A stretch of 64,000 nucleotides of DNA from an uncultured Oscillospiraceae bacterium (GTDB taxonomy: Bacteria; Bacillota; Clostridia; Oscillospirales; JAAYXM01), in NCBI GenBank assembly GCA_934446465.1, contig CAKSEF010000002.1:2083-66082 (forward strand), in the 5' to 3' direction. Positions 2,010 through 63,000 of this stretch are shown here, piece after piece. The position numbers were made by a program, and so were the translations under genes. The notes below the pieces were generated by a model. The model had not been told where the DNA came from, did not search any database, and saw only the letters and a list, made by a program, of their open reading frames with translations. Each line of letters opens with the position of its first letter. Position 1 is the stretch's first letter.

Positions 2010-3875
2010 ATGAAAAAGCTTTTTTCAATTATTCTTATCACAGTAATGGTTATTTCCCTTGCTCCGGGAGTTTTTGCAGACGGAACATCAGCAACGGATG
2101 GATCAAATCTTGTCCGTGCGTACAACTTTGATTTTGGCGCGGCAGGATACACGGGTGTGGCAGGGCAGACGGGAACTTCGGAGATCGGGTATGAGACGCT
2201 TAAAATCTTTGGTGACCCGGAAGGAGAAATAAATCCCACATGGTCAAAAGCAGACGCACCGCAGTGGGTTGTTGACGGTCATGCCCGCGCAACGAATATT
2301 GCGCTTACCACGGTTGAAAGCGGGAATAAGCAGGCAAACGCGCTGTATTGGTCTGCGTTTGGTACGCGGGCATATCAGAACGGTGTCGCAACAAATACAC
2401 ATGCTGTGGCAATAAGACTTAAAATCGACAAGCCCGGAACATACATTCCCGAGCTTACATACCACGCGCGCCCGGATTTGTGCATATTTGATATTTATCT
2501 TGTGCCGGCCAACTCCGAAATCATGACACCTGCGAATAAAGGCTATGTAACGATCCACCAAACTAAAGGAGAAAACAACGCAAACTTATTAAATCGGGTC
2601 ATAAACAATGCGGCCGCTTATAAGCTCGGAACTCTTGATATGTATGCGAAAGAAGCGGGAAGAGTTTCCACTTATCTCATAGGAGAGCACGCATTGAATG
2701 CGTTCACCGTTACAGAAGAAACCAAAGGAGAATATTATCTGTTCTTCCGTACCAACGGCGTAAATGATATCTTGAAGAAAGAATACGGTAACGGTAACGG
2801 CGCTGCGATTAACGTGAATCTCTTTTCTTTCGGTCTTTATACAGAGGATACAGGGACGGAAGAACCGACCGTGCAGGAAAAGACAGAAGCAGAATTTACT
2901 CCTTCAACCGATGATTCTTATATCGGAGCTCCCGAGAAGGTAACTGTAACAACGCTTGCCCGCTATGGCGAGACATCTGCCGTTATCGGAACAAAGGATG
3001 TCTCCTATGGCGAAATTGCAACAGTTGATGCTGTTCCGAAAACCGTAACAAGGGAAGATGGCACATACAGCTTTTTTTGCTGGGCAAAAGGTCTTGAAGA
3101 CGGTGCAAGCAGGCAGATTCTTTCCACAAGCAATGCCGAAATCTCTTACAAGCCGCACGAAGGCGCAAACTATCTCATTGCAGTTTATGAAAAAGAGGGC
3201 GGGGCGAAGGAAGCTTTCTATAACAACAACGGTCAGCTTCTTACCGACCTTGCAATTGCGGATGGCGTTCTCCCCGCTCTTCCGGCAATGGCAGGCAGAG
3301 GAAACGCAACATCATGGATACAGCGCGGTACAAACAATGAGTTTGCAGGCGGGGCAACTGCCCCGACAAGCGGCGACATGGTCTTTATGGCAAAGTATGA
3401 TGAAATTGAGAACAACATCACAATAAACGGCAAAAGCTATTCTTACGGCGATGTTGTTTCCTGCAAGGACATTGTTGACAGCATGGAAAACTTCAGCTGC
3501 TTCACAAGAAAAATCGGTGATGCCGATGCCGAAATCATAAGCATTGACGAGAATTACTCTTTTGCCGCATACACCGATTGCACAATCGAGGCAGTTTGCG
3601 AGGGCCCGGTAGAGATCGCCAGTCCGAAAAAGATTGCGCTTTCCACCTTCTCGGTGGGTGATAGGCTCACTGCGATTATGGCAGAGTTCATCGGCTTTGA
3701 GAATGCCAAGGAAAAGGGCATTATGTTCGGCAGCAAGAAAATTGCAATGATAAGTAACAAAGTACAGTTTACAATAACAAACGGTACTGCTGCTGACGTT
3801 ACCGTAACAGGCTATGCAATAGTTGGAAATGACAAATACATCGACGGTAAAATCACCGTTGACGCCGCAAAATAA
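2010..3875 (+). CDS. Secreted multidomain protein: signal peptide, unannotated ~230-aa module, then B-repeat-like C-terminal half
   Basis: 621 aa with AGGAGG upstream of the ATG and signal peptide MKKLFSIILITVMVISLAPGVFA. Residues ~40-262 are identical to the protein at 6680. The C-terminal half carries F/Y-x-F/C-W ... A-V-Y type repeats that resemble Listeria-Bacteroides (InlB B-type) repeats. These repeats are shared with 57690-59999. Confidence 0.8.
   Translation: MKKLFSIILITVMVISLAPGVFADGTSATDGSNLVRAYNFDFGAAGYTGVAGQTGTSEIGYETLKIFGDPEGEINPTWSKADAPQWVVDGHARATNIALTTVESGNKQANALYWSAFGTRAYQNGVATNTHAVAIRLKIDKPGTYIPELTYHARPDLCIFDIYLVPANSEIMTPANKGYVTIHQTKGENNANLLNRVINNAAAYKLGTLDMYAKEAGRVSTYLIGEHALNAFTVTEETKGEYYLFFRTNGVNDILKKEYGNGNGAAINVNLFSFGLYTEDTGTEEPTVQEKTEAEFTPSTDDSYIGAPEKVTVTTLARYGETSAVIGTKDVSYGEIATVDAVPKTVTREDGTYSFFCWAKGLEDGASRQILSTSNAEISYKPHEGANYLIAVYEKEGGAKEAFYNNNGQLLTDLAIADGVLPALPAMAGRGNATSWIQRGTNNEFAGGATAPTSGDMVFMAKYDEIENNITINGKSYSYGDVVSCKDIVDSMENFSCFTRKIGDADAEIISIDENYSFAAYTDCTIEAVCEGPVEIASPKKIALSTFSVGDRLTAIMAEFIGFENAKEKGIMFGSKKIAMISNKVQFTITNGTAADVTVTGYAIVGNDKYIDGKITVDAAK
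2126..2790 (+). repeat. Copy 1 of a 665-bp perfect direct repeat (partner 6790-7454)
   Basis: The nucleotide sequence reads identically line by line. The antisense track ORFs 2244-2561 and 6908-7225 encode the same 105 aa. The encoded protein segments (FDFGAAGYTGVAG...NDILKKEYG) are identical. Confidence 0.9.
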
Positions 3876-3894
3876 ACCAAACAAACAATAAGAC

Positions 3895-3932
3895 AACCGC
3901 TCGGGAGGAATTTCTCCCGAGCGGTTTGTTTA
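3895..3932. terminator. Bidirectional intrinsic terminator between convergent genes
   Basis: The 13-bp stem AACCGCTCGGGAG / CTCCCGAGCGGTT (3895-3907 / 3914-3926) is followed by TTGTTT on the plus strand. It lies between the stop at 3875 (+) and the stop at 4028 (-). Confidence 0.7.
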
Positions 3933-4027
3933 AGAAAAAGTTGAAAAAGCATACACTGTATGACAAAACAATTTTGTCAACAGCTTTTATTGATCAGATT
4001 AGTGCCGAGCACCTTTTAAAAGAAAAA

Positions 4028-5800
4028 TTACATCGTATGAATATACATAAAATCATTCGCGGAGAGCCATTTGCACTTCTGCCCCTGAATAAGCTCGGGC
4101 TCAAGTTCTTCTATCACACTTATCTTGCCGTCGAGGTAATCGTTTATAACTCTTCCGACATGGCGCAAGCGCTCAATTGCCGCACCGTAGCGGCACATGA
4201 TATTCTCAAAGCCGTGTGCCTTATAATCGCGGTACCACACTTCACGGTGGAGAGTATGAAGCTTTTCAAAATCCGCAATGATTTCGGGGAGTTTATTATC
4301 AGCAAAGCTTCGGAGATATTCTTTATCCCCTGCCTTATAGCGGTTACGGAGATTTAAGTGAATTTCACACTTATGCAAGCATGCGCGAAATGCAGCGAGA
4401 ATGTATTCCGTATTTTCATACTTTTCAATAACGGCAATTGCATCCGTAAGATACTTTTTAGCCGCAGAAAGGTCAAAATCAAAGCACAGAAGGTTAATCA
4501 GCGGATCGCTCCAGAGAATGTGCTTTCCGGCGCGGATTGCACCGTCCTCACGGAAGAAGAAATCGCTTATTGCATGGGAAAGCTCTTCCGTCATGCCGGT
4601 TGTAAAGTGCGCCATTTCCCATATATCTTCTTTCGTGCAGTCTTCTCCCTTCCAGCAGTATTCGGAGAAGAGCGAAAGCTGCGGAAGTGCCAGCATATGG
4701 CTGGTTTCACAGCCGTCGTTTGACCAGATGGTAACTATAACCTCGGGAACGCCGCCGCGAAGCACCTCTTCCATAGCGGGCTTCATTGTGTTGTAGGTGT
4801 GGTCATAGTTCGGAACAAAGCCGTCCCACGTCCAGATGCCGCCACCGAAAACAACCGGACGGTTGAAGTTTTTGTGTTTTTCTATATTTATCTTATAAAA
4901 CTCGTTGTTTGTGTGGTAATAATCCCAGAAAACCATATCCGCATCGGGCATTGCGTCTATTGCATACTGCGGAACAACAACATGGGGCATATAATCCTCT
5001 TCCTTGCTCTTTTCAACGAGCGAGAAGTACATATCGCTCCACATCAACGGGCGGAAGCCGTATTTTTTGCAAAGACCGCAAACTCTGCCGAGATGCTCGG
5101 AAAAGATTTCAAAGCGGTCGCGCATACCGTGCTTGACAAGATACTGCCCGAGGCCGAGCCCCGCGGTTTCGTCACAGCCGATATGAATACGATTTGTGCG
5201 GAACGCAGAGCGCATGGTTGCAATGCAGCTTTCAATAAATTTATACGTTTTTTCCTCACCGACAAGAAGAACCTTTGCATTCTCGGCGATTTCGTCGTTT
5301 ACGGAATAACGCAAAAACTGCTCCATATGGCCCAATGTCTGTATGCAAGGAATTACCTCAATGCCAAGCTGCGCCGCGAAATCGTCAATTCCGCGAAGTT
5401 CTTCAACGGTATATCTTCCGCGCTGATAGCCGAGATAAGGATAATCCTTTACCTCATATGTGTCTTCCGTATAAAGCATCAGCATATTATAGCCGTGGGC
5501 AGCAAGATATTTTATGTATGTCTTTACCGACTCCGGACGCATAACGCCGCCGCGCGACATATCAAGCATTGCGCCAAGCGTTTTAAGCGAGGGTTGCTCG
5601 CAAATTTCAAAGCTTTTCCCGCCTTCGGAAATCTCTTTGGCGAGAAGCGTATATGCACGGCACATTGCGGGGATTGTGTTGCCTCCAACAGTTGCGTTTT
5701 CGCCGTCGTATTTTACATAAACACCGTTATACTCGGTTTCTGTAATGTTCTGCGGAAACGCAACGTCAAAAAGCTCTGTTATCATATTTTTTATTTCCAT
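4028..5800 (-). CDS. Glycoside hydrolase family 20-like beta-N-acetylhexosaminidase (cytoplasmic)
   Basis: 590 aa with no signal peptide. GAMLDMSRGG...HGYNMLMLYTEDTYE...IPCIQTLGHME...RIHIGCDET resembles the GH20 TIM-barrel core with its HxGxDE acid pair. Confidence 0.75.
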   Translation of the reverse strand: MEIKNMITELFDVAFPQNITETEYNGVYVKYDGENATVGGNTIPAMCRAYTLLAKEISEGGKSFEICEQPSLKTLGAMLDMSRGGVMRPESVKTYIKYLAAHGYNMLMLYTEDTYEVKDYPYLGYQRGRYTVEELRGIDDFAAQLGIEVIPCIQTLGHMEQFLRYSVNDEIAENAKVLLVGEEKTYKFIESCIATMRSAFRTNRIHIGCDETAGLGLGQYLVKHGMRDRFEIFSEHLGRVCGLCKKYGFRPLMWSDMYFSLVEKSKEEDYMPHVVVPQYAIDAMPDADMVFWDYYHTNNEFYKINIEKHKNFNRPVVFGGGIWTWDGFVPNYDHTYNTMKPAMEEVLRGGVPEVIVTIWSNDGCETSHMLALPQLSLFSEYCWKGEDCTKEDIWEMAHFTTGMTEELSHAISDFFFREDGAIRAGKHILWSDPLINLLCFDFDLSAAKKYLTDAIAVIEKYENTEYILAAFRACLHKCEIHLNLRNRYKAGDKEYLRSFADNKLPEIIADFEKLHTLHREVWYRDYKAHGFENIMCRYGAAIERLRHVGRVINDYLDGKISVIEELEPELIQGQKCKWLSANDFMYIHTM

Positions 5801-6268
5801 TGCTATTCTCCTTTTCTGTTGTCAAGTACATTAAAACACATCTTATGGATTTTTTTCGCATTATCGTACATTTATCATAAACTGTGGGTCGATAACTTTA
5901 TCTGTCAGTGTATCCTTCATATACATATAAACGTTATACAGAGCAAGAAGATTCCATGCTTCCAAAGTATCCTGACTGCGCTGTACAAGGTTTACCGGCT
6001 CATAAACGCCACGAGGCCGAATAAGCTCAATATCGTTGCCGTGAAGCCCGCCGATCTAACCGCTTGCAGCAGGATCTGATTCGTTTGCGAAAGCACGGAG
6101 TTTATCCTACGGGGATTTACGATATTGCGCGCCGGTATATAACGGACGGCAACCGGGCGACAGAAGCCGCCGCTGTCTGCGGTTCCGGCGGCTGTTCATT
6201 CCTTTGCCGCGCATACGTAAAAAGTATGTCTCTGTTCTGTTATTAAAAATAATTTCAAGGAGATAAAA

Positions 6269-6490
6269 ATGCGAATTATTATAGATGCAGACGGGGATCT
6301 CGGTGTTGATGTTTCCGTTTCGGCCGCAAAAAATTACGGGCTTTAAGTTCGTATTCTCTGTGATACGACACACATTTGATAAAGACGGTGCGGAAACTCA
6401 TATTTTGTCGCAAGAGACCTCCGGCACCACGGGAAATATTGAAACTGTGCGCCTGTGAACACAGATTAGCATCTGAAATCACCATACCCC
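6269..6490 (+). pseudogene. Decayed YaiI/YqxD (DUF188, UPF0178) family gene
   Basis: AAGGAG RBS, then ATG and MRIIIDADGD (family start is M.I.VDADACP), with a stop after 25 codons. Shifted frames still read FSVIRHTFDKDGAETHILSQE, similar to the family core. There are several stops and frameshifts. Confidence 0.4.
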
Positions 6491-6577
6491 TAAAAAATAC
6501 AGTTCATTATATGGGCAACTAGGTGAAATATAAGAAAACAGCTTGTTTTTCATGACTCACACGCGGCTGCACTTCCT

Positions 6578-6599
6578 AAAAATGTACAATATAGCGAAA
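6578..6599 (+). promoter_or_regulatory. Shared upstream motif AAAAATGTACAATATAGCGAAA plus extended -10 TGTTATAAT, upstream of the giant lyase-like gene
   Basis: Near-identical to 797-818. It is followed by TGTGTTATAAT about 20-25 nt downstream, with only a weak -35, which suggests activator dependence. Confidence 0.45.
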
Positions 6600-6679
6600 T
6601 ATACATCTTCTCTGTGTTATAATTTAATAAACGATATTGATTTGAATTTAGAGCAATATGGTATAAGGGGGGAATACGT

Positions 6680-9600
6680 ATGAAAGGGAAAATGAAGCGT
6701 TTACTTGGCGCACTGCTTTCTGTTGCTGTGTGTGTATCACTGTTTCCGTCTGTAACCTTTGCGGTTGAGCCGACAACACCGGTGATAAGCTTTGATTTTG
6801 GCGCGGCAGGATACACGGGTGTGGCAGGGCAGACGGGAACTTCGGAGATCGGGTATGAGACGCTTAAAATCTTTGGTGACCCGGAAGGAGAAATAAATCC
6901 CACATGGTCAAAAGCAGACGCACCGCAGTGGGTTGTTGACGGTCATGCCCGCGCAACGAATATTGCGCTTACCACGGTTGAAAGCGGGAATAAGCAGGCA
7001 AACGCGCTGTATTGGTCTGCGTTTGGTACGCGGGCATATCAGAACGGTGTCGCAACAAATACACATGCTGTGGCAATAAGACTTAAAATCGACAAGCCCG
7101 GAACATACATTCCCGAGCTTACATACCACGCGCGCCCGGATTTGTGCATATTTGATATTTATCTTGTGCCGGCCAACTCCGAAATCATGACACCTGCGAA
7201 TAAAGGCTATGTAACGATCCACCAAACTAAAGGAGAAAACAACGCAAACTTATTAAATCGGGTCATAAACAATGCGGCCGCTTATAAGCTCGGAACTCTT
7301 GATATGTATGCGAAAGAAGCGGGAAGAGTTTCCACTTATCTCATAGGAGAGCACGCATTGAATGCGTTCACCGTTACAGAAGAAACCAAAGGAGAATATT
7401 ATCTGTTCTTCCGTACCAACGGCGTAAATGATATCTTGAAGAAAGAATACGGTAGCGGTAGCGGCGCTGAGATTAACGCGAATCTCTTTTCACTGAAGCT
7501 TTATAACAAAGCGGATGTCGCGGTTCCTGCGCTCGCTTCGGCAACACTTTCGCTTGAAAGCACAACTATGACAGAGGGTGAGAGTGTACTCCCGAAACTT
7601 ACGCTTTTCCTTGAAAACGGAGACAACCCAAGTGCCGAAATGCTTTCGGGATACGAGATAAAATACGAAAGCAACAATCCTACGGTTGCTTCGGTAAATG
7701 AAAATAGCGGCGAAATTACGGCACTCAAAACCGGAAACGCCACAATCACAGTAACAGAGACCAAGTCCGGCGTAGCGGGCAAGTTGGACATCACAGTTGC
7801 GGGAAAGCCTTATCTTGAACGCTTACAGCCGAAATGGGAAAACTTCGTTCTTTTTGCGAATGACGACAAAAACTCCACTGCAGATCTTGGCATTCTTGCG
7901 GTGATGTCAAACGGCAAGAATATTGTTCCGGATGAGTATAAAATCACATACATAAGCGCAGACGAGAACATAGTTACCGTGGACAAAGGAACTATAACAG
8001 CCGTAGGCGTTGGAAAAACAACTGTTACCGCATCGGCAACAAACGAAAACGGCGAGCCGGTAAGTGTTACGGTAAACGCAGAAGTGCGCGGAGAGCTTGA
8101 TGGACTTATATACAACTTCAATGCAGCTTCCTACGGCAAAGACAAAGAAATTGCAATGGCTGATTTAACAAAGCTCGGATATGCCGAAAACGGCTCTGAC
8201 CCTTGGAAGGTCTTAAGCGGGGCAAACACCGTTTATTGGTTGTCTGTAACGGCTGATGAGAAAGTTGACCATCCATACGGCGCAAATTCTGCAACTAACG
8301 TTCTTGCATGGGGGATATGGGGATATCGCGCTGCAAGATATACAGGCGCCGAGATGAACAAGGAAGAAGGAACTTTTGAGGGTGGAACATACTCGGCACG
8401 TCAGGATGCGGCGGTAGCTGCGCTTATAAATATTACAAGAGCAGGTACGCTTGTTCCGGCAATATCATATGAGGCACGCAACACACTTTCGATTTTTGAC
8501 ACATATCTTATTCCTAAAACGGTTGTTGATGCAAGCTCTCATCCTGACCTTTCTGTCGGAACGGAAATCGCAAAGCTTCTCAGCTCAATAGACAAGGAAA
8601 AATATTTGATTGCAAAACACGATATGTACGACGGTTCACTTGAAGAGCAAGTTACGATTAACAAGCTTGATCGTTTTGGAAATATCGAGATAACCGAGAC
8701 GGGCGAGTATTATCTTATCTGGCAGGTGAACGGCATTAACGAAGCCTTGCAGGGGCCGGAAAACTTTACTTATCTAAACAACAACGTAAACTACAAACAT
8801 ACTATTTACGTAAACATTCATTCTTTCGGACTTTATCCTCTGCCGAAGACCGAGCTTTCTTCAACCGGTGCGCATACGGAAACGGAAGAGGTGTTTGAGG
8901 GCGACATCGTGCGGCTCATTGCAACGCCGGAGCTTGCAGACGGAAAAACGGTAAACACACCTGCAATTATAAGCACATTTACTTCTCTTGATGAAGAAAA
9001 AGCAACGATAAACGGCGAATATCTCATTGCAAAAAAAGCAGGAACCGTTAAAGTCAAGGTTGATTCACGCATCAGCGGAAGCGAGGACGTTGTAACTGAA
9101 TATGTTGATATCGAAATTCTCCCCGAAAGCATAACAGACATCTCCGTTACTGCCGGCGGCAGTAAAAATATCCGACTTACGGACAAGAAGAATGATACCG
9201 TTCCGCTTTTTGTTACGCCTATAAGCAACCTCGGAAACAAACTTCCGACAGAAGAAATGATATTTACCGCAAACGCTCTCACTCCTGAGGTTGCAGACAT
9301 TATAAACGGAGATACAATCCTTCCCGTTACTGAGGGTGAGGCTAAATTCAATGTTATCGTAACAATAGGAGAAAGAACTATCGAACGCGAAGCAACGCTT
9401 CTTGTCGTAAAGGGCAAGAGCCGCGCATCGTACATGACAAAAGAAAAAGCAGAAGCCGCGCGCGAAAACATCAAGAAATACAATTGGGCGAAAAAGGAAG
9501 CAGACGGCGCAATAGCGCAGGCAGACAGATTTGTGGACAACTTGGATATTCTCTATAACCTTATAGCTTCCGAGGGTATTCCGCGAGGAATAGATGTTGG

Positions 9601-12600
9601 TGCCGTATCTGACCCGAATCTCGGATTTTGCCGCTTCTGTGGCGTGAAGATTTCCGCAAAATACGGTTCACCGCCATGGGTTGTCAATGCGATTTCCCGT
9701 CCGTGGAAGATTCAGTGTCCGGATTGCAAGCGGCTTTTCCCGTCAAATGATTTTAAAAGCTTTTACGAGCTTGGGCTTAACGAATACCGCGAATTTGAGC
9801 GTTCCCGCGCATTGGCACGACACCATGCGCTTATTCACCACGGCGATGCATATGCCGTTTGTGATTGTACACCACCGGCGGATGAATGGACAAACGAATG
9901 GTATTCATACTACGGATACGGTGATGAGAATGGATATCTCTATAACGCCCTTTACAAAAATGTTGACCTTTCAAAGGTGGATACATTAAATGCAAATCTG
10001 AGATTGCGCCCGGGAGAGACTCAGGAAACGTGGGGCGTTGATGACGGATACGGTTACGTTCCGCGAAAGGAAGACGGAACAGCATATCAAGCCGGCTCGC
10101 GCGAAGAGCGACATACATATATCGCGGAATATCTCCACTACGGTATATGGCGCGGCGGCGCGGTTGTAAACGCAATCCGCTATTGCTCGGATGCTTACTT
10201 CTATACCGGTAATATAAAGTACGGAAGAGTTGCGGCAATTCTTCTTGACCGCACGGCAGATTTTTACCGCGACTTTGACCGCTCGCACTGGGGTAACTGG
10301 GTTAATAACTCCGACGGAGGTTCGGGACTGGGAAAGATACTCGGTAACATCTGGGAAGGTACGAATATGAAGACATTCTTCGCCGCTTATGATAAGGTGT
10401 TCGAGTGTTATGACGATCCGTTTGTCGTTGAGTATTTGAGCAAAAAGTCAAAAGAAATAAAGATGAACTACGCGAAGAACACACCGTCGCAGATCAGAAC
10501 AAACATTGAGGACGGAATTCTGCGCGGCGCACTTGAAGCACTTCCCGGCTGCTTTATCTCCGGTAACTTTGGATACCCTCAGAGTGCAAATGCAATGGCA
10601 GCGGTAGTTCTCGATACTATGCCCGATACCAAATACTGGCTTGATTATCTTATGGCACCGGGCTGGTCGCGTTCCGCTCCGAGTCTCGGCGGCGGAATAA
10701 ATGCACAGCTTGTAAATGATGTTGATGCAGACGGTCAGGGAAATGAGGGCTCGAAATATAACATTGACTGGCATACAACACTCATCGGTATACAGGAATA
10801 TCTTAACGGTTATGATGCTTATGTTGCGGCAAACCTTTACAATAATCCGAAGTTTGTAAAGATGTTTTATTCCAACATCCCGCTTGTTACGGGTAACCAC
10901 TCTGCGAACATCGGTGATACGTTCACTACTATGAGTAAAGACCAGTGGTACAATAAGAATCAGCTTGTTATGGCTGTTAAGTACTTTGATGATCCGCGCT
11001 TTGCACAGTTGCTTTATCTTGTAAACGGTAAGACATCCGAAGGACTGCGTTATGACATATACGAAAGAGACCCGGAGCGCCTTGCGGACGAAGTTCAGGC
11101 AATTATTGACAGGCTGGGCGAGATATCGCTTGACTCTGAGGTTATGACAAACTTCGGATATGCAATATTGCGCGACGGTAATAATTACTCTGATTCTCTC
11201 ACTCCGACGGCAAAGGATACAACGAGAAATGTGTGGATGTACTTCGGAACAAGTGCCGGTCATGCCCACAAAGATACGCTTAATCTCGGTATGACGGCAT
11301 TCGGTCTTGAATATCTCCCGGATCTTGGTTATCCGGAGGAAACATCATATACACCTAACCGTCTTCAGTGGGTAGGTACGACGCTTTCGCACAATACTGT
11401 TACGGTTAACGAACAGGCAGTTAAATCTCTGGATGAACCGAGAGGAGAGTCTCTGCACTTTGACCACAACGAAACAATTCAGCTTATGGATGTTTCCGCA
11501 CCGTATGTGAGCGAGGAAACGGAGGAATACCGCAGAAGTGTTATAACCGTCCATGTTGATGACGACAATTCGTACGCAGTTGATTTCTTCCGCGTTCTCG
11601 GGGGAGATACTCACCTCTATTCTTTTCATGCCGCATCAAATGAGATAGCAAAGACAACGGGACTTGATTTCACGCTCACAGAGGACGAGAACGGAAACTA
11701 TATTTCCGGTTCTCAACTTGACGAAAACGGCAATTACAAAGGCACATATGCCGGACGTGACGCAAAGTATATTAAGGATGAGGTAACGGGAGCGGTTCGC
11801 GCATATACGGAGGATGCAAGCTTGAACGATAACGAGGTCATCCTTGAGGCTGAGTGGGGGAAGGATCCAAATTCACCAAACGAGTGGTTCTACAATACGA
11901 TTTTCCCACGCGGATACACATGGCTGAAAAACGTTGATCGCGACATCGAACCTGAGAATAAGGTTGAGGTCGATTTCAAAATAAAAGACTTCAATAAGCA
12001 CCTAAGAGACGGCTCTAACCTTCATTTGTATATGACGGTGCTCAACTCAGGAAATATAGCGAAAGGTGCAGATGCTGAAATTTCGATTGCTGACGGATTG
12101 CCGCCGGATAAGTCCGGAAACAAGAATATCGATAAATTGAAGTATGTTCTTATTAAAAATCGGGGAGAGAATCTTGACACAACATTCACTACTGTTCTTG
12201 AACCATACCGCAAGACGCGTTATATCAAGTCAGTAGACGAGCTTCCGATGACGGTTACAGGCGGTGAGGAACAGGCCGGCGATTCCAGCCGCGCTGTAAG
12301 AGTTGAGCATACAAGCGGCAGAGTTGACTATATCCTTTACGCGACCAATACCAACGTAACTTATGAAATAACGCTTAACGATGAAAGTAAGCTATCGTTC
12401 CGAGGCTTTGTGGGCGTATATACCGTGCAGAACGGAGTAATTACCTATAAATATCTCCACGATGGAGATATTCTCGGCGGAGAGTATGGAAAAGCATCAA
12501 TAGATGGTATTGTTTCCAAGTTTACCGATACGCTTGAACTTAAAAACTACATCTGGATTACGCCGAAAGCGCCTCTTTCTGATGATGAGCTTGCACTTCT

Positions 12601-13774
12601 CAGCGGTAAATACATATTTGTAAACAACGGCACAGAAAACAGAGGCGGAGCATGGCGCATCAAGGCGGCAGAGCGCGACGGAAACGATATTAAGCTTGAC
12701 GTAGGGGATGTTACGACAATCCGCAGATTCAAGGATGCAATTGACGAGGAGGCAGGCTTTAAATACACTATAGCAAAAAATCAGTCTGCGAGAATTCCGC
12801 TGACAACAATAGTAGATAACGATCCCGTGTTTGCACCGATAAGAGACAACCTTACGACAAATGCCGGAAGCACAATAGCAGTTACTGTCAGCGCCGCAAG
12901 TCCGGATACGGGAAACGCATCCGGTATAAGATACGTCGGCGAGACTATTCCGAGCGGTGCAAGAATAGATGCGCAGACCGGCGTATTCACGTGGAAGCCG
13001 GACAACTCACAAGTCGGAACAAGCCATGTTGCGATAACGGCAATTGACGATTACGGCAGGCAGAGTACAGCTCACTTCTATATTAAAGTTTATGGTTCCA
13101 CAACAGGCGGATCTGCAACAGACAGTGCGGAAAATCCGTCGGATGGCAGAGACGACAACAGCGGCGGCTCCGCACCTGCACCCGATAAGGAAGATACCAA
13201 TGCGGGGGACGGAGGTTCCGACGCCCACGACAAAATGCAATTCACAGACCTTTCCAACCACGCGTGGGCAGCAGATGCAATTAACGCTCTTGCCGCAGAC
13301 GGCATAATCCGTGGAACATCGGAAACAACATTTTCGCCTGCAGCCAACATTACGCGTGCGGACTTTGTACTGTTGCTTGTTCGTGCATTCAAGTTGACAT
13401 CGGATAACACGGAAAATTTCGCGGATGTTCAGGCTTCGGACTACTTTGCGTCTGAGATTGCAATAGCACGCAACAACGGGATTATCAGCGGAATAGGCGA
13501 AAATAAATTCGCACCTCGCAATTTCATCACCCGTCAGGATATGATGGTAATAGTATACCGCGTTATGCAGAAGCTCGGTGCAGAATTCGGCATTTATGAC
13601 AAACCGGAATATCCCGATTTCACCACCGTTGCCGATTACGCGCGTGTCGGGGTATCCGCGCTCATAGTCACCGGCCTTGTAAACGGTAAGGGCGGCAAAA
13701 TCGCGCCCACAGACTACACCACCCGTGCAGAGGTTGCGGTGCTCATCAAACGCATATTGGAACACATAAAATAA
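6680..13774 (+). CDS. Giant cell-wall-anchored heparinase II/III-like polysaccharide lyase family protein (2364 aa)
   Basis: RBS AAGGGGGG and signal peptide ...VTFA. The unannotated module occurs twice (aa ~36-275 and ~475-720), separated by Big_2-like Ig repeats (SVNENSGEITALKTGNATITV). The heparinase II/III-like region has an N-terminal helical part (NIKKYNWAKKEADGAI...) and a C-terminal signature (SAGHAHKDTLNLGMTAFGLEYLPDLGYPE...TLSHNTVTVNEQ). After that come a putative Ig/cadherin-like domain (GVFTWKPDNSQVGTSHVAITAIDDYG) and a low-complexity linker. Three SLH domains end the protein (13235-13771: FTDLSNHAWAADAINALAADGIIRG...). Confidence 0.9.
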   Translation: MKGKMKRLLGALLSVAVCVSLFPSVTFAVEPTTPVISFDFGAAGYTGVAGQTGTSEIGYETLKIFGDPEGEINPTWSKADAPQWVVDGHARATNIALTTVESGNKQANALYWSAFGTRAYQNGVATNTHAVAIRLKIDKPGTYIPELTYHARPDLCIFDIYLVPANSEIMTPANKGYVTIHQTKGENNANLLNRVINNAAAYKLGTLDMYAKEAGRVSTYLIGEHALNAFTVTEETKGEYYLFFRTNGVNDILKKEYGSGSGAEINANLFSLKLYNKADVAVPALASATLSLESTTMTEGESVLPKLTLFLENGDNPSAEMLSGYEIKYESNNPTVASVNENSGEITALKTGNATITVTETKSGVAGKLDITVAGKPYLERLQPKWENFVLFANDDKNSTADLGILAVMSNGKNIVPDEYKITYISADENIVTVDKGTITAVGVGKTTVTASATNENGEPVSVTVNAEVRGELDGLIYNFNAASYGKDKEIAMADLTKLGYAENGSDPWKVLSGANTVYWLSVTADEKVDHPYGANSATNVLAWGIWGYRAARYTGAEMNKEEGTFEGGTYSARQDAAVAALINITRAGTLVPAISYEARNTLSIFDTYLIPKTVVDASSHPDLSVGTEIAKLLSSIDKEKYLIAKHDMYDGSLEEQVTINKLDRFGNIEITETGEYYLIWQVNGINEALQGPENFTYLNNNVNYKHTIYVNIHSFGLYPLPKTELSSTGAHTETEEVFEGDIVRLIATPELADGKTVNTPAIISTFTSLDEEKATINGEYLIAKKAGTVKVKVDSRISGSEDVVTEYVDIEILPESITDISVTAGGSKNIRLTDKKNDTVPLFVTPISNLGNKLPTEEMIFTANALTPEVADIINGDTILPVTEGEAKFNVIVTIGERTIEREATLLVVKGKSRASYMTKEKAEAARENIKKYNWAKKEADGAIAQADRFVDNLDILYNLIASEGIPRGIDVGAVSDPNLGFCRFCGVKISAKYGSPPWVVNAISRPWKIQCPDCKRLFPSNDFKSFYELGLNEYREFERSRALARHHALIHHGDAYAVCDCTPPADEWTNEWYSYYGYGDENGYLYNALYKNVDLSKVDTLNANLRLRPGETQETWGVDDGYGYVPRKEDGTAYQAGSREERHTYIAEYLHYGIWRGGAVVNAIRYCSDAYFYTGNIKYGRVAAILLDRTADFYRDFDRSHWGNWVNNSDGGSGLGKILGNIWEGTNMKTFFAAYDKVFECYDDPFVVEYLSKKSKEIKMNYAKNTPSQIRTNIEDGILRGALEALPGCFISGNFGYPQSANAMAAVVLDTMPDTKYWLDYLMAPGWSRSAPSLGGGINAQLVNDVDADGQGNEGSKYNIDWHTTLIGIQEYLNGYDAYVAANLYNNPKFVKMFYSNIPLVTGNHSANIGDTFTTMSKDQWYNKNQLVMAVKYFDDPRFAQLLYLVNGKTSEGLRYDIYERDPERLADEVQAIIDRLGEISLDSEVMTNFGYAILRDGNNYSDSLTPTAKDTTRNVWMYFGTSAGHAHKDTLNLGMTAFGLEYLPDLGYPEETSYTPNRLQWVGTTLSHNTVTVNEQAVKSLDEPRGESLHFDHNETIQLMDVSAPYVSEETEEYRRSVITVHVDDDNSYAVDFFRVLGGDTHLYSFHAASNEIAKTTGLDFTLTEDENGNYISGSQLDENGNYKGTYAGRDAKYIKDEVTGAVRAYTEDASLNDNEVILEAEWGKDPNSPNEWFYNTIFPRGYTWLKNVDRDIEPENKVEVDFKIKDFNKHLRDGSNLHLYMTVLNSGNIAKGADAEISIADGLPPDKSGNKNIDKLKYVLIKNRGENLDTTFTTVLEPYRKTRYIKSVDELPMTVTGGEEQAGDSSRAVRVEHTSGRVDYILYATNTNVTYEITLNDESKLSFRGFVGVYTVQNGVITYKYLHDGDILGGEYGKASIDGIVSKFTDTLELKNYIWITPKAPLSDDELALLSGKYIFVNNGTENRGGAWRIKAAERDGNDIKLDVGDVTTIRRFKDAIDEEAGFKYTIAKNQSARIPLTTIVDNDPVFAPIRDNLTTNAGSTIAVTVSAASPDTGNASGIRYVGETIPSGARIDAQTGVFTWKPDNSQVGTSHVAITAIDDYGRQSTAHFYIKVYGSTTGGSATDSAENPSDGRDDNSGGSAPAPDKEDTNAGDGGSDAHDKMQFTDLSNHAWAADAINALAADGIIRGTSETTFSPAANITRADFVLLLVRAFKLTSDNTENFADVQASDYFASEIAIARNNGIISGIGENKFAPRNFITRQDMMVIVYRVMQKLGAEFGIYDKPEYPDFTTVADYARVGVSALIVTGLVNGKGGKIAPTDYTTRAEVAVLIKRILEHIK
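6790..7454 (+). repeat. Copy 2 of the 665-bp perfect direct repeat (partner 2126-2790)
   Basis: See the copy at 2126-2790. The offset is 4664 bp in direct orientation and the repeats bracket the GH20 gene. Confidence 0.9.
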
Positions 13775-22975: not shown

Positions 22976-23254
22976 TTGGCGGAAAAAAACGCAACTATAC
23001 GCGGTGAGCTCTTAAAGATTATCCGCAGAAAGGTTGACCCGTCATATGCGGAAAATCTTGGGATTCTTGACGGCAGGAAAAAGAGCCTCAGCGTGTGCCG
23101 TGCGATAGCCTTGGCGCAGGTGAAAAAGGGACTCGAAGGCGACCTGAAGGCCGCGGAGTTCATCGAGAATGTGCTTTCCGACGATGTCGGGGAAGAAAAT
23201 AACGGCGCGGAGTTCAGAGTGGAACTGAAGGTGGTCGGAGATGATAGAGCTTAG
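22976..23254 (+). CDS. Small terminase-like protein (short, no obvious HTH)
   Basis: The TTG start lies 8 nt after AGGAGGTG, whereas the track start at 22919 lies inside the terminator. The gene overlaps the terL start by 14 nt. The helical segment ...SVCRAIALAQVKKGLEGDLKAAEFIENV resembles the C-terminal part of some TerS proteins. The call rests mainly on position. Confidence 0.35.
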   Translation: MAEKNATIRGELLKIIRRKVDPSYAENLGILDGRKKSLSVCRAIALAQVKKGLEGDLKAAEFIENVLSDDVGEENNGAEFRVELKVVGDDRA

Positions 23255-24557: not shown

Positions 24558-24573
24558 TTGTGAAAGGAGAATA

Positions 24574-24747
24574 ATGAATATAACTGTATCAAGAACAGAT
24601 AACTTGGAACTTTTAAAACAAATCCGCGCGAGGGAAAAGGAAATAGCCGTACTTGACCTGCGGATTAATGCGCTCGAGCGCGAGCAAAACGCAATACTGC
24701 GGAATATAGACACAATATTTGAAATGCTGGACGGCGCGGAGGTGTAA
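24574..24747 (+). CDS. Hypothetical 57-aa coiled-coil protein
   Basis: RBS AAAGGAGA precedes the ATG. The sequence is MNITVSRTDNLELLKQIRAREKEIAVLDLRINALEREQNAILRNIDTIFEMLDGAEV. The stop is 1 nt before the next start. Confidence 0.5.
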   Translation: MNITVSRTDNLELLKQIRAREKEIAVLDLRINALEREQNAILRNIDTIFEMLDGAEV

Positions 24748-24748
24748 A

Positions 24749-26815: not shown

Positions 26816-26827
26816 GGAGGCTAATAT

Positions 26828-27856: not shown

Positions 27857-28053
27857 GCATAGCTTTTTTGATTCTCGGGGCGGTGATATTTGCCGCCGGA
27901 GTTATGTTTGAAAGATTCGACCTCTCATCTCTGAATTACGGAAACGGACGAAAATATGAAAACATACCTAAGAATATAAACCTCACAAAACAGTGGGAGA
28001 ACCTTCTCGGATATGACGGAACGGCAAAGGAGGAAGAAAATGACAGTGAATAA
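27853..28053 (+). CDS. Hypothetical 66-aa single-pass membrane protein
   Basis: The GTG start overlaps the previous stop (GTGA). The TM helix is IAFLILGAVIFAAGVMF and the C-terminus is acidic. Confidence 0.4.
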   Translation: MSIAFLILGAVIFAAGVMFERFDLSSLNYGNGRKYENIPKNINLTKQWENLLGYDGTAKEEENDSE

Positions 28054-57689: not shown

Positions 57690-59999
57690 ATGAAAAAGAC
57701 ATTGTTGGCAATACTTGTTATGGCGATGGTGATGTCCGTCATCACAGCTATCCCGTCAGTATCTGCTGAGGAAGTTTATACATATAACTTCACATCAACG
57801 GAAAACGGCGGAGTAAAGGGTGTGTTGGCACCCGTCTTTGCAGACTATGCAGAGGGAAGAAATTGGAAATATGTTGCAATGGAGGATTCGTTCTATACGG
57901 CGTATACGTCCCACAGCGACTATACGAGCAATCCGGATGCAGGATACTCACGCTATGCGCGTACCATGACTTACGGACTCCAGCTTCAGTCTGCAAATAA
58001 CCAATGGCTGGCGCTTGGTCTGAAAGTACCGACTAAGGGAACTTACAGGGTTGACCTCACTTATGCAACGCTTCAGTACGGAAAAACGGGAGATATCTAC
58101 GTGGCTCCGTTGAGTGTCGGCGCCGAAGGTGCAATAGCCGAACAGTATAAGCTCGGAAGCGTAAACTACAACGGAACGGGAGAGGCTTCTACGGCTGAGC
58201 TCGGAACGCTTGCGGTAACGTCTGACAACGAAGAGGTTGTTGTTGTCTTTAAATCGACAGGCGGAAATATGGCACCGCAGGAAGTCAGACTCACCTACGT
58301 CGGAAAAGTCATGCCCAAACAGACATACAGCTTCGTTCTTGGAAGCTCTGAACAGAACAAGGGCATAACTAATTATTCAACATACGATTCAACGGGCAAA
58401 AATTGGCGTTACTACGGAATGAGCGACAGCTTGTATGCAAAATACGAAACAAATTTCGCATATGCACGCACGCTCTATTACGGCGTTCAGATTCAGGCGG
58501 CAGCGGACGAGTACGTGCAGTTTGCCGTTAATGTTCCCGACGCGGGTGTTTATAAGTTCGACATCAAATTCTGGGCAACGCCTGTCTGCGCGAAGACTAC
58601 TTCGCTCTATTTTGCACCCGCTTCCTCGGAAAATAAAATGAGTGCGGATAAGGAGCTTGAAGGCGTAAGCATGCGCGGAGACGTGTCGGCAGGAGCGGAG
58701 GGTTCAGCTTTCGCAGGAACGGTAAATGTTCCGTCGCCGGGCGAATACGTAATTACGATGAAATCAAGCGCAGGCGCAATGCAGCCGAGAGAGATAACGC
58801 TCACGGGAGTCGAACCCACGGGAATCACGGCCGAAACGGAGAGCAAGACTATAAAGTTGGGCGGAAAATCCGCAATAACGGTAAAGTCGGTTGTCGACGG
58901 AATAAATTACATACTCGCAAATCACGGCGCAGACTTTAACGACTCAAATAATTGTGTTACAATAGGATCGGACGGAACGATTACCGCAAAGGCAGAGGGC
59001 GAGACGGTTATATCTGTATCCGCCGTCGGATTTAACACAAGTATACCGATAACCGTATACCATCCGAATGCAAAAATTGACGAAGCAACAACGAGTAAGC
59101 TCTACATTTCGGCACCTGTGGGAGCTGAAATTGACGGAGCGGGAATTGTTTCGGATGTTGCAATAGGAACAGCCAGAACAGTAACCGCACCCGAGAAAAT
59201 AGGCGAGCTTGAATTTAAATATTGGAAAGATATCATAACGGGCAGAGTTCTCTCAACGGATGCGGAATACTCATTCACGGTAGGAAGCAATACAAAGATA
59301 GAAGCGGTTTACGCGGAAAAAGCAAACGGCTATCTTGTTGAATTTGCAAACGCCAACGGCGAGGTAATATCAAGCAGTTACAAGAACACAGGCGACGCGA
59401 TAACAGCTCCCGCGCTCCCGAGCCTCACGGGCTTCGGCATGGCAAGGGAATGGAGCAGGTATCCGTCCGTTGTCGGAACAAGCAACGTACAGTCGGTGGC
59501 AATCTACGATGACCCCGCAGCCAATATTTCGATAACTGTCGAGAACGGAAGCGGAAGCGGAAATTACGCTTACAACGACAAGGTAACGGTAACGGCTTCC
59601 GACGGAAACTTCAGTTATTGGAAGCGCGGTGAACAGATAGTAAGCTTTGACAGCACATACAGCTTCTACGCATGGGACAGCGCAACGCTTACCGCGGTAT
59701 TCGGCGAAGATGTATCGGATGTTGACCCAAGCGTAATTCTTGACGACAGCGTAAGAACGGAAAACGGAAGATTCGCGTATATGTCCGAGCTTGTGGGCTT
59801 TGACGGAAAAACTGTCATTGAGCACGGAATCATCTTCGGAAGCGAAGGACTCGACATCGACCATTGCCAATATAAGGCAGTGGCAAAGGGAACATCCGGT
59901 CAGTTCTCGTCCTATACGGAAAGTTCTCTTAAGGCAAGAGCATATGCAATTTATCGGGACGGCGCAGATATAAGAATAGCTTACAGCGCGGAAAAGTAA
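57690..59999 (+). CDS. Secreted multidomain protein: two copies of the unannotated module, a Big_2-like domain and B-repeat-like C-terminal repeats
   Basis: 769 aa with RBS AAAGGAG and signal peptide ...IPSVSA. The modules span aa ~27-205 and ~206-375 (YARTMTYGLQLQSANNQWLALGLKVPTKGTYRVDLTYA...GDIYVAP...YKLGSVNY). The C-terminus is similar to the C-terminus of 2010-3875. Confidence 0.8.
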   Translation: MKKTLLAILVMAMVMSVITAIPSVSAEEVYTYNFTSTENGGVKGVLAPVFADYAEGRNWKYVAMEDSFYTAYTSHSDYTSNPDAGYSRYARTMTYGLQLQSANNQWLALGLKVPTKGTYRVDLTYATLQYGKTGDIYVAPLSVGAEGAIAEQYKLGSVNYNGTGEASTAELGTLAVTSDNEEVVVVFKSTGGNMAPQEVRLTYVGKVMPKQTYSFVLGSSEQNKGITNYSTYDSTGKNWRYYGMSDSLYAKYETNFAYARTLYYGVQIQAAADEYVQFAVNVPDAGVYKFDIKFWATPVCAKTTSLYFAPASSENKMSADKELEGVSMRGDVSAGAEGSAFAGTVNVPSPGEYVITMKSSAGAMQPREITLTGVEPTGITAETESKTIKLGGKSAITVKSVVDGINYILANHGADFNDSNNCVTIGSDGTITAKAEGETVISVSAVGFNTSIPITVYHPNAKIDEATTSKLYISAPVGAEIDGAGIVSDVAIGTARTVTAPEKIGELEFKYWKDIITGRVLSTDAEYSFTVGSNTKIEAVYAEKANGYLVEFANANGEVISSSYKNTGDAITAPALPSLTGFGMAREWSRYPSVVGTSNVQSVAIYDDPAANISITVENGSGSGNYAYNDKVTVTASDGNFSYWKRGEQIVSFDSTYSFYAWDSATLTAVFGEDVSDVDPSVILDDSVRTENGRFAYMSELVGFDGKTVIEHGIIFGSEGLDIDHCQYKAVAKGTSGQFSSYTESSLKARAYAIYRDGADIRIAYSAEK

Positions 60000-60082: not shown

Positions 60083-63000
60083 ATGAGAAAAATTTTATCT
60101 TTGGTTCTCGTATTCGCGATGGCTGTATCGCTTTTTGCAAACGTCCAGTTTGCATTCGGGGCAGATACACTGACATACAGCTTCAAAATCGAGAGCGGGA
60201 CCAAAATCGAATCCGTAAAGGGAGTTGCGGATTTCGATACATATGAGTCTACGGGCAGAAATTGGAAGTTCTGTTCCATGAATGACTCACTCAGAGAAAA
60301 GTATAACGGAAATTACGCATTTGCACGAACGATGACATACGGGCTGCAAATACAGTCGGAGGGGAACGAATGGCTTTCGCTTGCCGTCAAAATTCCGACC
60401 GCGGGAACATATTCCGTCGAATACAAATATTCAACCGTTTCGTGGGGCAAAACAGGGGATATCTTCCTTTCGCCTATGGAAGCGGGAATAGAAAAATCAC
60501 GGAACGGGGAGTATAAGCTCGGTTCGGTAAGCTACGCCGGAGGCGGGGAAATTAACTCATCGGATTTGGGCACAATAACGGTGGGATCGGATAACTCCGA
60601 GTATATACTCACGTTTGTATCAACGGGAAATACACAGCTTCCGTCCGAAATAGTTCTCAAACCCGTATCAGATGACCCCATAACCGAAAAATACGATTTT
60701 AAGAAATATAAATCGAGCTACTATGTCCCCGAAATAAAGTATGAGGACACAGACAACACGTGGGAATACCACTCGTGCGAAAGCTCACTTTGGGATTCCT
60801 ACAATACCTCGAAAAACTTCATCAGAAATCCCGCGGGTCTCGGCTACGGAATACAGGTACAGTCCGGTTATGTCGGGCAGTATCTCGCGCTGAAGCTGAA
60901 GGTTCGGAAGGCGGGAAATTATAACGTCAAGTTCACATATGCGAAGGCTTCGCTCGGCGGAGAGGCAGATGTATTCATAGCTCCGATTGCGGAAACCGAC
61001 ATAACAAATGAAAAATATAAGGTCGGAAGCGTTTCGTTCTACAACGAAACTCAGCAGAATCTGAATGAGAAAAAGCTTAAATCGCTGAATATAACATCAG
61101 CGGGCGAGTATGTTGTAACCTTCCTTGTAACAGGCAAGAATAAGAGCTGCAATATGTACCTTACGGGGCTTGAATTCAATCCGAATGAAGCTGCGCTTGA
61201 ATCCGTAACACTTACTGCGGAGAAGACAAGAATCAAAGTCGGAGAAGAAACGAAAACAACGCTTTCCGGAAAGTTGTCCGACGGCGCCGAAGATGACCTC
61301 TCGGCGGCGGATGTGGTATATGAAAGCAGCAACGAGGAGATTGCAAAGGTTGATGCCGACGGAAAAATTACCGCTATGGGTGCGGGAACGGCAAAGATAA
61401 CGGCGCGCGTAACGCTTTTGGGAATAACAAAGGAATCAAGCTGTCTTATAAGGGTGGAGACAGACGAAAATCCCCCGTATACAGGCGTTTCCGTATTGTA
61501 TGACCTAAAGCTCGGAGCGGGGAAGTATGAAGACAGCGATATGCGTCCGATAAAATACGCGGACACGGACGGTGTCTGGGAATTCGGCGGATATGACGAG
61601 AGCATGATTCCCGCAGACGCGCCGAAACCCGGAATTTATATAAGAAATAACCTCGCTTACGGCGTCCAGGTGCAGAGCAACCGTGAAAAAAATTGGTTTG
61701 CGGTAAAAGTCAATGTCTCCGATGTCGGACGTACAAAATTCGTACTCGATTACTCGGTATATAAGTACGGCGGAATCGGGAATATATACTTTGTCCCCGC
61801 GTCTTACGGCAAAGAGCATTGGCGCAGTGATGCTTTTAAGCTCGGAGAGGTGAATTTCTATGAAGATGTTTCGTCTCCGGCAGTTAAAAAAACAGAATAT
61901 GACCTGACGATAGAAAGTGCGGGCGAGTATGCGGTCGTATTTGAGGCGGCAAAAAGGCTTGGCGGGTGCAATATGTATATGTCGGGCTTTACGCTTGACG
62001 GACAAAACGGAGTAAAGACTGTTCCTGTTCTTCCGAAGAAAAGCCTCAAAATAGGGGAGAGTATGAAAATTTCATACGATCTCCGTGATTATAACGGCAA
62101 AAAAACAAGCCTTCCGAATATAAGCGTTTCGTACAACAGCATAACACCCGACATATTGGAAGTCTCCGATGACGGAACGGTATCGGCAAAGGCGCTCGGA
62201 ACGGGAATCATCGAAATAGGTGTCCTGAGCGAGGGAACACTCCGCCGTGCAAGATGCGAAGTCTATGTCGGGACGGGAAAGCGCGGAGTGAGCTTCTATA
62301 CAGAGGAAAAACGCAAAAATGCCGTTGAAAATGCAAAGAAATACGACTGGGCAAAAACTCTCCGCGACAAAGCTGTAAAAGAGGCTGATATTTACGTCGG
62401 TAACGAAGAAAAGCTTTGGAATCTCATTACACAGGAGGGGATTCCGAGAGGTATAACCGTGGGATATCAGGATGACCCCAATGCATATAAGTGTCGGTAC
62501 TGCGGAGAAGATCTACGCGCTCAGTACGGCGCATACCCATGGAAAATCAACGTTCTGACGCGCCCGTGGAAAATACAGTGCCCGAGCTGTAAGCGCGTGT
62601 TCCCGTCAAACGATTTCGGAAGCTTCTATAATCTCGGAATCGATGAAGAGGGAAAGTTTGATTATGAGCTTGCGCATAAAAGAAACGCGGAGATAGTTGC
62701 AAACGGCGGAGAGGGCTACCTCGTAAACAAGCTCTATCCGGAAGCCGAAGAAAAATTCGGCGATGCGAATTGGGGCGTTGATGACGGCTTCGGCTATATC
62801 GCAAAGAACCCCGATGGAAGCGTTAAAACGTATGCAAACGGAGTAGAAGAAGCTCACACATATATTGCATATTACAATCACTGGGGCATCTGGTTCGGAA
62901 AGACATTCACAACCGAATCCAAGAGCCTTGTCGGCGATGCGCTTACATCACTTCGCGATGCCTACCTCTATACGGGCGATGAAAAGTACGGCCGTGTAGG

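Follow-up and report, generated by a model that had tools for sequence, protein, structure and literature searches.

What is the domain that recurs eight times in four secreted proteins of an uncultured gut Oscillospiraceae bacterium, two of them giant enzymes with a lyase-like catalytic region, and what might it do there? The proteins, here called O1 to O4, are encoded in two loci on a 64,000-nucleotide (nt) stretch of contig CAKSEF010000002.1 (assembly GCA_934446465.1, positions 2,083 to 66,082 of the forward strand). This stretch is referred to as the window, and all coordinates below are counted from its first letter. A first-pass annotation, made from the letters of the window alone, had described the repeated segments as a module that it could not assign to any named family. 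Our analysis leaves us highly confident that the module represents a real, homologous domain family, which is not covered by existing family models and has a fold like that of the carbohydrate-binding modules (CBMs) of families 6 and 35 (CBM6/35-like). The whole statement, carbohydrate binding included, is that this unmodelled family serves as glycan-binding modules on lyase-like enzymes, and we consider it probable.

Eight module copies in four secreted proteins

The four open reading frames (ORFs) form two loci, with O1 and O2 in locus 1 and O3 and O4 in locus 2:

2010..3875, + strand: O1, 621 aa, secreted and non-catalytic (ORF list and translation)
6680..13774, + strand: O2, a giant secreted enzyme of 2364 aa (translation and Pfam)
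57690..59999, + strand: O3, 769 aa, secreted and non-catalytic
60083..64000, + strand: O4, a giant enzyme and paralogue of O2, running past the end of the window (translation and Pfam)

A Sec signal peptide of the typical kind can be read at the start of all four sequences, for example MKKTLLAILVMAMVMSVITAIPSVSA/EE. In O1, the signal peptide is followed by one long-type module and a beta-rich tail of ~340 aa, and in O3 by two short-type modules, an immunoglobulin (Ig)-like domain and a tail homologous to that of O1. The giant enzymes are built from more parts. O2 consists of a signal peptide, a module, Big_2, a second module, Ig-like domains, the heparinase II/III-like region, He_PIG and three S-layer homology (SLH) domains, while O4 has a signal peptide, two modules, Big_2, a third module, an Ig-like domain and the catalytic region. 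Pfam recognized Big_2, Hepar_II_III_C, He_PIG and SLH in O2 and Big_2 in O4, with no match on any module segment; O1 and O3 gave no Pfam match above threshold and no catalytic domain. The Big_2 matches are located between modules (O2 aa 326-362, O4 aa 373-441), in line with the earlier description of modules alternating with Big_2-like Ig domains. That the segments could be Big_2 or Ig domains in their own right was rejected, as these matches fall between the modules and none falls on them.

The family hidden Markov model (HMM) was run on a six-frame translation of the whole window. Exactly eight modules were found, with no further copy in the 64 kb: three long copies of ~250 aa in locus 1 and five short copies of ~170 aa in locus 2. 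Scores of the long copies are full-sequence scores against an HMM of locus-2 type, described below.

2109..2852, + strand: copy 1, long, O1 aa ~34-281 (envelope of the locus-1 HMM; 46.2 bits against the locus-2-only HMM)
6773..7516, + strand: copy 2, long, O2 aa ~32-279 (six-frame scan; 45.9 bits against the locus-2-only HMM)
8093..8848, + strand: copy 3, long, O2 aa ~472-723 (33.1 bits against the locus-2-only HMM)
57762..58313, + strand: copy 4, short, first module of O3 (family HMM, 117.9 bits)
58305..58823, + strand: copy 5, short, second module of O3 (family HMM, 112.6 bits)
60158..60679, + strand: copy 6, short, first module of O4 (family HMM, 127.1 bits)
60671..61198, + strand: copy 7, short, second module of O4 (family HMM, 137.0 bits)
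61478..62017, + strand: copy 8, short, third module of O4 (family HMM, 132.0 bits)

The first-pass annotation had counted the same eight copies in four secreted proteins. Its module coordinates agree with the HMM bounds to a few tens of bases, and both core strings that it quoted were found in the translations.

It had also described the copies as one module in two subtypes, a longer one in locus 1 and a shorter one in locus 2, and BLASTP, HMM and hhalign results agree on this. In an all-against-all BLASTP of the eight segments, module pairs of locus 2 matched with E values of 4e-5 to 8e-42, the best pair being the first copies of O3 and O4 (43% identity, E 8e-42). Within locus 1, the O1 copy and the first copy of O2 were 96% identical, and the two copies of O2 shared 28-30% identity (E 6e-11). 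Between the subtypes BLASTP was marginal (E ~0.03), and an hhalign comparison of two small alignments built from window sequences only was no more than suggestive (62% probability, E 7.5e-5). Stronger signals were obtained with deeper alignments. An HMM of locus-2 type was built from modules collected with the short-type profile, both from the window and from external sequences, and contained no locus-1 sequence. It gave the excised locus-1 modules the full-sequence scores listed above and per-domain scores of 38.8, 36.1 and 26.2 bits, while reversed modules and 200 shuffled versions scored at most 7.7 bits. When an external-only alignment was compared with the locus-1 alignment, hhalign returned 96.5% probability and an E value of 8.7e-10 over 96 columns. 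Because of the HMM scores relative to their controls and this deeper hhalign result, we regard the long and short subtypes as homologous at the level of sequence. A lack of statistical homology between the subtypes had been named beforehand as evidence that would speak against a single module; profile HMM and hhalign both indicate homology.

The hhalign match spans the C-terminal two-thirds of the module, from W-x-A-h-K-h-P-x-x-G-x-Y to G-E-Y-h-h-h-F. Of the four-part skeleton that had been proposed by eye, the stretch from the core to the GEY motif is recovered in this comparison. For Y-x-F and W-x-Y at the N-terminal end, an alignment was obtained only with the iterated HMM and with MAFFT, and their share of the score is smaller. 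A chance match of beta-strand-like motifs between two unrelated modules, to which the marginal BLASTP value and the 62% of the window-only comparison might point, is extremely improbable in view of the deeper hhalign match, the HMM scores of 33-46 bits against at most 7.7 in the controls, and the retrieval of the same PDB neighbours by the AlphaFold models of both subtypes; it was rejected on the hhalign and HMM-control results.

Known families, predicted fold and distribution

Each window module was compared alone with Pfam at E <= 10. The second copy of O3 matched CBM_35 (PF16990) with an E value of 6.5e-6 and 26.9 bits, below the gathering threshold of 28 bits, over profile positions 30-79 of 121. 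The other seven modules gave no CBM match. No match to CBM_6 was obtained for the window modules at E <= 10, nor for 48 diverse modules of the wider family at E <= 0.01. Among these 48, CBM_35 appeared at E < 0.01 in three and Golvesin_C in two, and none reached the gathering threshold of any Pfam family; matches of one member each to Shr-like_HID, Lipase, InlK_D3 and Y_Y_Y were treated as noise. NCBIfam contained nothing relevant for the modules. By each family's own criteria in Pfam and NCBIfam, the module is, as judged from its sequence, outside every modelled family.

A profile of the 48 family sequences was also searched against all PDB sequences. The matches were weak: residues 798-899 of the xanthan lyase 6f2p (E 0.0024, 20.9 bits, ~110 positions), the CBM35 region of the cycloisomaltooligosaccharide glucanotransferase (CITase) 3wnk (E 0.003), AaBglC 8zvk, and the mannanase CBM35 2bgo (E 0.18). 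A single-sequence phmmer search of PDB sequences with the second copy of O3 gave no match.

The structure of one module of each subtype was predicted with AlphaFold. The first copy of O4 was modelled with a predicted local distance difference test (pLDDT) score of 95.6 and a predicted template modelling (pTM) score of 0.91, as a beta-sandwich of ~12 strands, with a pair of short helices close to the N-terminus, which is the fold that the first-pass annotation had expected. For the first copy of O2 the values were lower (pLDDT 67.8, pTM 0.72), with a well-predicted core, 90 poorly predicted N-terminal residues and an inserted 16-residue helix (model residues 159-174). According to these models, the basic module is a beta-jelly-roll sandwich of ~170 aa, and the long form is the same core with ~70 additional residues. 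Its N-terminal part is extended, one helix is inserted between the D-I-Y-h-x-P and Y-K-L-G strands, and another, short one precedes the final strand. The module is contiguous, non-catalytic and, with its discrete fold modelled at high confidence, apparently folds independently; it also turns up as one unit in proteins of differing architecture.

With Foldseek, both models retrieved a common set of PDB neighbours at probability 1.0. This set comprises CtXyl5A CBM6/CBM62 (5la2), GH26-CBM35 (3zm8), MiXBM (7ehg), CBM61 (2xom), CBM36 (1ux7), CBM6 (5fui, 2cdo, 1gmm, 1uy0), CBM35 (2w1w, 2w47, 2w46) and the hyaluronan-binding module of pneumococcal hyaluronate lyase (4d0q). Taken together, the near-threshold CBM_35 match and the CBM fold neighbours place the new sequence family as a remote branch within the known CBM6/35-like fold class. 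The earlier statement that the module belongs to no named CBM or Pfam family thus holds in so far as no Pfam or NCBIfam threshold was reached, and has to be qualified by the faint link to CBM_35 and by the fold class that the module shares with CBM6, 35, 61, 70 and 84.

The likeness to CBM35 and CBM6 lies in this fold class (Foldseek probability 1.0), in a central strand-pair motif and in the attachment to polysaccharide-degrading enzymes. CBM35 modules bind sugars with the assistance of calcium, at a loop site at the end of the sandwich. The differences are considerable. Template modelling (TM) scores to the solved CBM35 structures 3zm8, 2w1w, 2w47 and 2w46 were 0.29-0.56 and identity to CBM35 and CBM6 was only 8-16%; the modules carry ~40-50 extra N-terminal residues, forming a strand and two helices, to which the long subtype adds ~70 more; and they occur in arrays of two to eight highly diverged copies. 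It may still be asked whether they are ordinary divergent members of CBM35 (or CBM6) that fall just below the Pfam cut-off, with nothing new about them. The 26.9 of 28 bits of the second O3 copy would fit this, as would the entry "CBM_35 (faint)" in the precomputed annotation and the central motif h-x-h-x-V-P-x-x-G-x-Y-x-h-x-h-x-Y, which is like the CBM6/35 strand pair and aligns with 5awo, 3wnk and 8zvk. However, the CBM_35 profile is covered over only ~50 of its 121 positions, E < 0.01 is confined to three of 48 modules and the cut-off is reached by none, CBM_6 is not matched at all, and seven of the eight window modules lack any CBM match. TM scores to solved CBM35 and CBM6 structures are only 0.40-0.56, and the N-terminus is longer than that of CBM35 by 40-50 aa with two helices. 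We therefore find this explanation quite improbable.

The family extends well beyond the window. An exhaustive search of 1.84 billion proteins with a profile of the five short modules retrieved 342 cluster representatives at E <= 1e-3, of which 159 remained at E <= 1e-10 and 28 at E <= 1e-30, most of them with several matched stretches. The module family is thus real but rare. It was detectable only in this way and not by searches with single modules: word-indexed searches found no homologue for the first copy of O4, and for the long subtype only the short fragments P0001 and P0152. Those carriers that bear public names are called "hypothetical", "S-layer homology domain-containing" or "Ig-like domain-containing" and stem from metagenome-assembled genomes (MAGs) of Oscillospiraceae or Ruminococcaceae. 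The proteins of the window are themselves present in NCBI and ENA, unnamed. No description of the module or of its carrier proteins was found in the literature. The nearest reference genome was the goat-rectum Oscillospiraceae MAG RGIG3057, whose homologue of O2 shows 58% identity and carries its two long-type modules where O2 has them. A variant of O3 that differs in one residue (P0002) was found on three metagenome contigs (L002-L004) with the gene order AraC, GFO/IDH/MocA, O3, O4. These three independent contigs carry near-identical versions of locus 2, in all of which the O4 homologue reaches the end of the available sequence or comes within one base of it, just as O4 runs to the end of the window.

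Architectures were counted in the best 150 proteins of the exhaustive search, which contain 537 modules, with two to eight per protein. Of these proteins, 145 start with Met, and 132 of the 145 have a first module that begins no more than 60 aa from the N-terminus, right behind the signal peptide, so that the first place which had been noted in the window is a family-wide trait. A catalytic region of the O2 type is present in 62 proteins, 33 of which have SLH-type C-termini, and modules lie upstream of the catalytic region 217 times and downstream three times. The earlier claim that the module always precedes the lyase-like region accordingly applies to O2 and O4 and to nearly all of these cases; O1 and O3 have no such region. 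Two other architectures recur. The first has two to three modules and a tail of ~400 aa, as in O3 and O1; the O3 tail matches 25 sequences of the searched set and the O1 tail eight, with the window proteins counted in. The second has five to seven modules followed by a tail of ~1020 aa (P0021, P0028-P0030, P0032, P0040, P0043, P0048, P0054 and others), in which no catalytic domain was recognisable and only weak matches to beta-propeller families (Reg_prop, SGL, PQQ_2) were obtained.

Proposed role on lyase-like enzymes

The module resides in a predicted carbohydrate-active enzyme in O2, which carries a Hepar_II_III_C domain and is PL17-like, and in its paralogue O4; this does not apply to O1 and O3, nor to many other carriers in which no further domain was recognised. 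Features of the two enzymes outside the modules are:

11246..11644, + strand: Hepar_II_III_C, O2 aa 1523-1655 (Pfam E 8.8e-8, 32.4 bits, cut-off 24)
13241..13771, + strand: three SLH domains at the C-terminus of O2, cell-wall anchor (Pfam SLH E 2.7e-28, three stretches)
9629..9754, + strand: four-cysteine motif CRFCG...QCPDCKRLFPSNDF at the start of the O2 catalytic region (regular expression on the translation)
62492-62617: four-cysteine motif at the start of the O4 catalytic region

A profile of the catalytic region matched the PL17 alginate lyases 9irq (E 2.3e-7) and 7bjt (E 9.4e-6) in its Hepar_II_III_C part, and the catalytic regions of O2 and O4 are 40% identical to each other (E 3e-125). 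Together with the above-threshold Hepar_II_III_C domain in O2, these matches support the description of the region as heparinase II/III-like and PL17-like, with a predicted lyase role, and uphold the label "lyase-like" of the first-pass annotation. The likeness to the known heparinase II/III-like and PL17 lyases is limited to the C-terminal beta-sheet part. The N-terminal ~600 aa of the catalytic region matched nothing in Pfam or among PDB sequences, and contain the four-cysteine motif in O2. The motif follows the pattern C-R-F/Y-C-G ... W-K-I-Q-C-P-x-C-K-R-x-F-P-S-N-D-F, which was found in its strict form in 36 of 62 homologues, and its cysteines are invariant in an alignment of seven sequences; it resembles a zinc ribbon. 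Since the catalytic region is related to polysaccharide lyases, the substrate of O2 and O4 probably contains uronic acids.

A different arrangement was seen in one homologue, P0113, where an insertion of ~110 aa (…AFSFSVDTAGEYEVALRPIRAQSYGIYNVYIDDQFV…LSEGEHSIKFVN…) is located inside the heparinase-like region. It looks like a conventional CBM6/35-type module that is placed internally.

The two loci are paralogous pairs, each of which combines a small secreted, non-catalytic module protein with a giant enzyme. The tails of O1 and O3 are 31% identical (E 7e-16). Divergence between the loci is much stronger in the modules than in the tails and the catalytic regions, and the subtype is common to both proteins within each locus. 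Within locus 1, the first modules of both proteins share a nearly identical stretch of DNA:

2126..2827 and 6790-7491, + strand: 702-nt block, 99.4% identical, with 4 mismatches and no gaps (blastn)

The identity ends sharply at both sides near the module boundaries, so that the shared stretch is practically one module. This pattern suggests that a module-sized segment was recently duplicated, or passed on by gene conversion, between O1 and O2; the copy of O1 and the first copy of O2 should therefore not be counted as independent observations. Tandem copies within one protein share 25-33% identity; they are thus old and diverged, and the arrays are not recent amplifications. The sharing of subtypes within a locus would fit module sets that are directed at a locus-specific target.

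From the fold class, the placement and the locus-specific pairing, we infer that the modules bind carbohydrate and that their ligand is the substrate of the enzyme. In the mechanism that we propose, the C-terminal SLH domains would tie the giant enzymes O2 and O4 to the cell wall. With the anchor at the C-terminus, the modules would form the distal N-terminal tip of the enzyme, spaced by Ig-like domains, with the catalytic region in the middle of the protein. There they could bind the polysaccharide substrate and keep it close to the catalytic region. The companion protein, O1 or O3, which has the same module subtype as its enzyme partner, would bind the same glycan.

Several observations weigh against a glycan-binding role. 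The structural likeness to known CBMs is modest, with TM scores of 0.4-0.5 on the query and at most 0.65 on the target at 10-16% identity. Domains that do not bind carbohydrate score equally well; these are the ligand-binding domains of Eph receptors, MAM domains and domain III of Cry toxins. Over all fold neighbours, identity is 8-17%. The columns that are conserved throughout the family (Y-x-F, N-W, W-x-A, P-x-x-G-x-Y, Y-x-x-P and G-E-Y) are located in beta-strands of the model and look like framework residues there rather than a conserved ligand site. Many carriers, such as those with five to seven modules and the ~1020-aa tail, have no recognisable carbohydrate-active domain, and a single-sequence phmmer search with the O2 catalytic region found no relative among PDB sequences. 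In the short subtype, a set of polar residues is conserved in addition to the framework: K, S and R, and the Q-x-Q within A-R-T-x-x-Y-G-h-Q-h-Q. Along their strand, these Gln and hydrophobic residues take alternate positions, so that both Gln should face outward, and this set may, speculatively, mark a candidate ligand surface.

Could the modules instead be structural spacers that bind nothing and form a rigid beta-sandwich stalk, which extends the catalytic region from the SLH-anchored surface? Their alternation with Ig-like domains, the arrays of up to eight copies and the family-wide conservation at strand and framework positions would suit such a stalk. A spacer, however, would not have to be the opening domain behind the signal peptide, which a module is in 132 of 145 proteins, and the small O1 and O3 have nothing to space. 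The nearest folds are those of binding modules, and the subtypes that are shared within a locus and differ between loci, together with the 99.4% identical block in O1 and O2, argue for a specific function. We consider a pure spacer role unlikely.

Slightly less likely again is that the modules make protein-protein contacts, either by docking O1 or O3 on the neighbouring enzyme or by adhesion to a surface protein of the host or of other microbes. Docking would agree with the subtype that both partners of a locus share, the leading fold matches include Eph ligand-binding and MAM domains, and the many carriers lacking a recognisable carbohydrate-active domain also fit. On the other hand, most of the top structural matches are carbohydrate binders, as are the only relatives detected at the sequence level (CBM_35, the xanthan-lyase module and the CBM35 of CITase). 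The local genes point to sugar metabolism, and Pfam scans gave no cohesin- or dockerin-type signature.

For the glycan-binding role, two further CBM families are instructive. MiXBM and the modules of Paenibacillus xanthan lyase (PXL) are xanthan-binding members of CBM84, which sit on a polysaccharide lyase for an acidic, branched polymer (PMC10881899). MiXBM (7ehg) was the best match of both subtypes when TM scores were normalised on the target (0.62-0.65, E 7e-6 to 1e-5), whereas the query-normalised scores were only 0.35-0.51. The sequence signal towards CBM84 (6f2p 798-899) is weak and below what a family threshold would need, and the matching residues of 6f2p are C-terminal to the catalytic part, whereas the modules studied here are N-terminal. 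Xanthan is, to our knowledge, no obvious gut substrate. The second family is CBM70, represented by the hyaluronate lyase of Streptococcus pneumoniae (4D0Q). CBM70 is an N-terminal, non-catalytic, hyaluronan-binding module on a polysaccharide lyase that is attached to the cell wall. It belongs to the same beta-sandwich class as our modules (E 3e-5 and 3e-4, TM 0.34-0.49), but its structural score is lower, it occurs as a single copy and no sequence similarity to the modules was detected. The CBM70 enzyme is anchored by LPXTG and O2 by SLH domains.

A more far-reaching proposal is that the modules form a new CBM family with a new specificity, probably for an acidic gut glycan, and act as an exchangeable "address label" in a two-part capture system. 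Its parts would be a secreted binding protein and an SLH-anchored giant lyase, matched to each other in every locus by module-sized gene conversion. We put this forward tentatively, as a somewhat doubtful extension of glycan binding.

Hundreds of giant secreted proteins from uncultured Oscillospiraceae of ruminant and other guts carry only uninformative names. A profile of the module would annotate two to eight domains in each carrier and flag the carriers as probable glycan-targeting proteins. If binding is true, the modules would constitute a new CAZy CBM family and help to find out what a large branch of heparinase II/III-like enzymes, so far uncharacterised, acts on. In practice, the gain would be better annotation and a set of candidate glycan probes; the understanding of how CBMs work would be unchanged, and the mechanism itself is unsurprising.

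Neighbouring genes

Genes near O1 to O4 encode a GH20 enzyme, GFO/IDH/MocA oxidoreductases, a xylose-isomerase-like TIM barrel, an SGNH esterase and an AraC regulator. The GH20, GFO/IDH/MocA and TIM-barrel genes, among others, indicate local sugar metabolism. One of them lies within locus 1:

4028-5800, - strand: GH20 glycoside hydrolase, catalytic domain and GH20C C-terminal domain, between O1 and O2

This gene possibly indicates that substrates of locus 1 contain hexosamine.

The interval between the two loci contains phage-type genes (window 23241-29557), with a terminase large subunit at 23241-24557 and a P22-like portal at 28013-29557, which suggests a prophage or prophage remnant. The remainder of the interval is occupied by housekeeping genes, including those for YchF, a GlmS-like protein and a histidine kinase.

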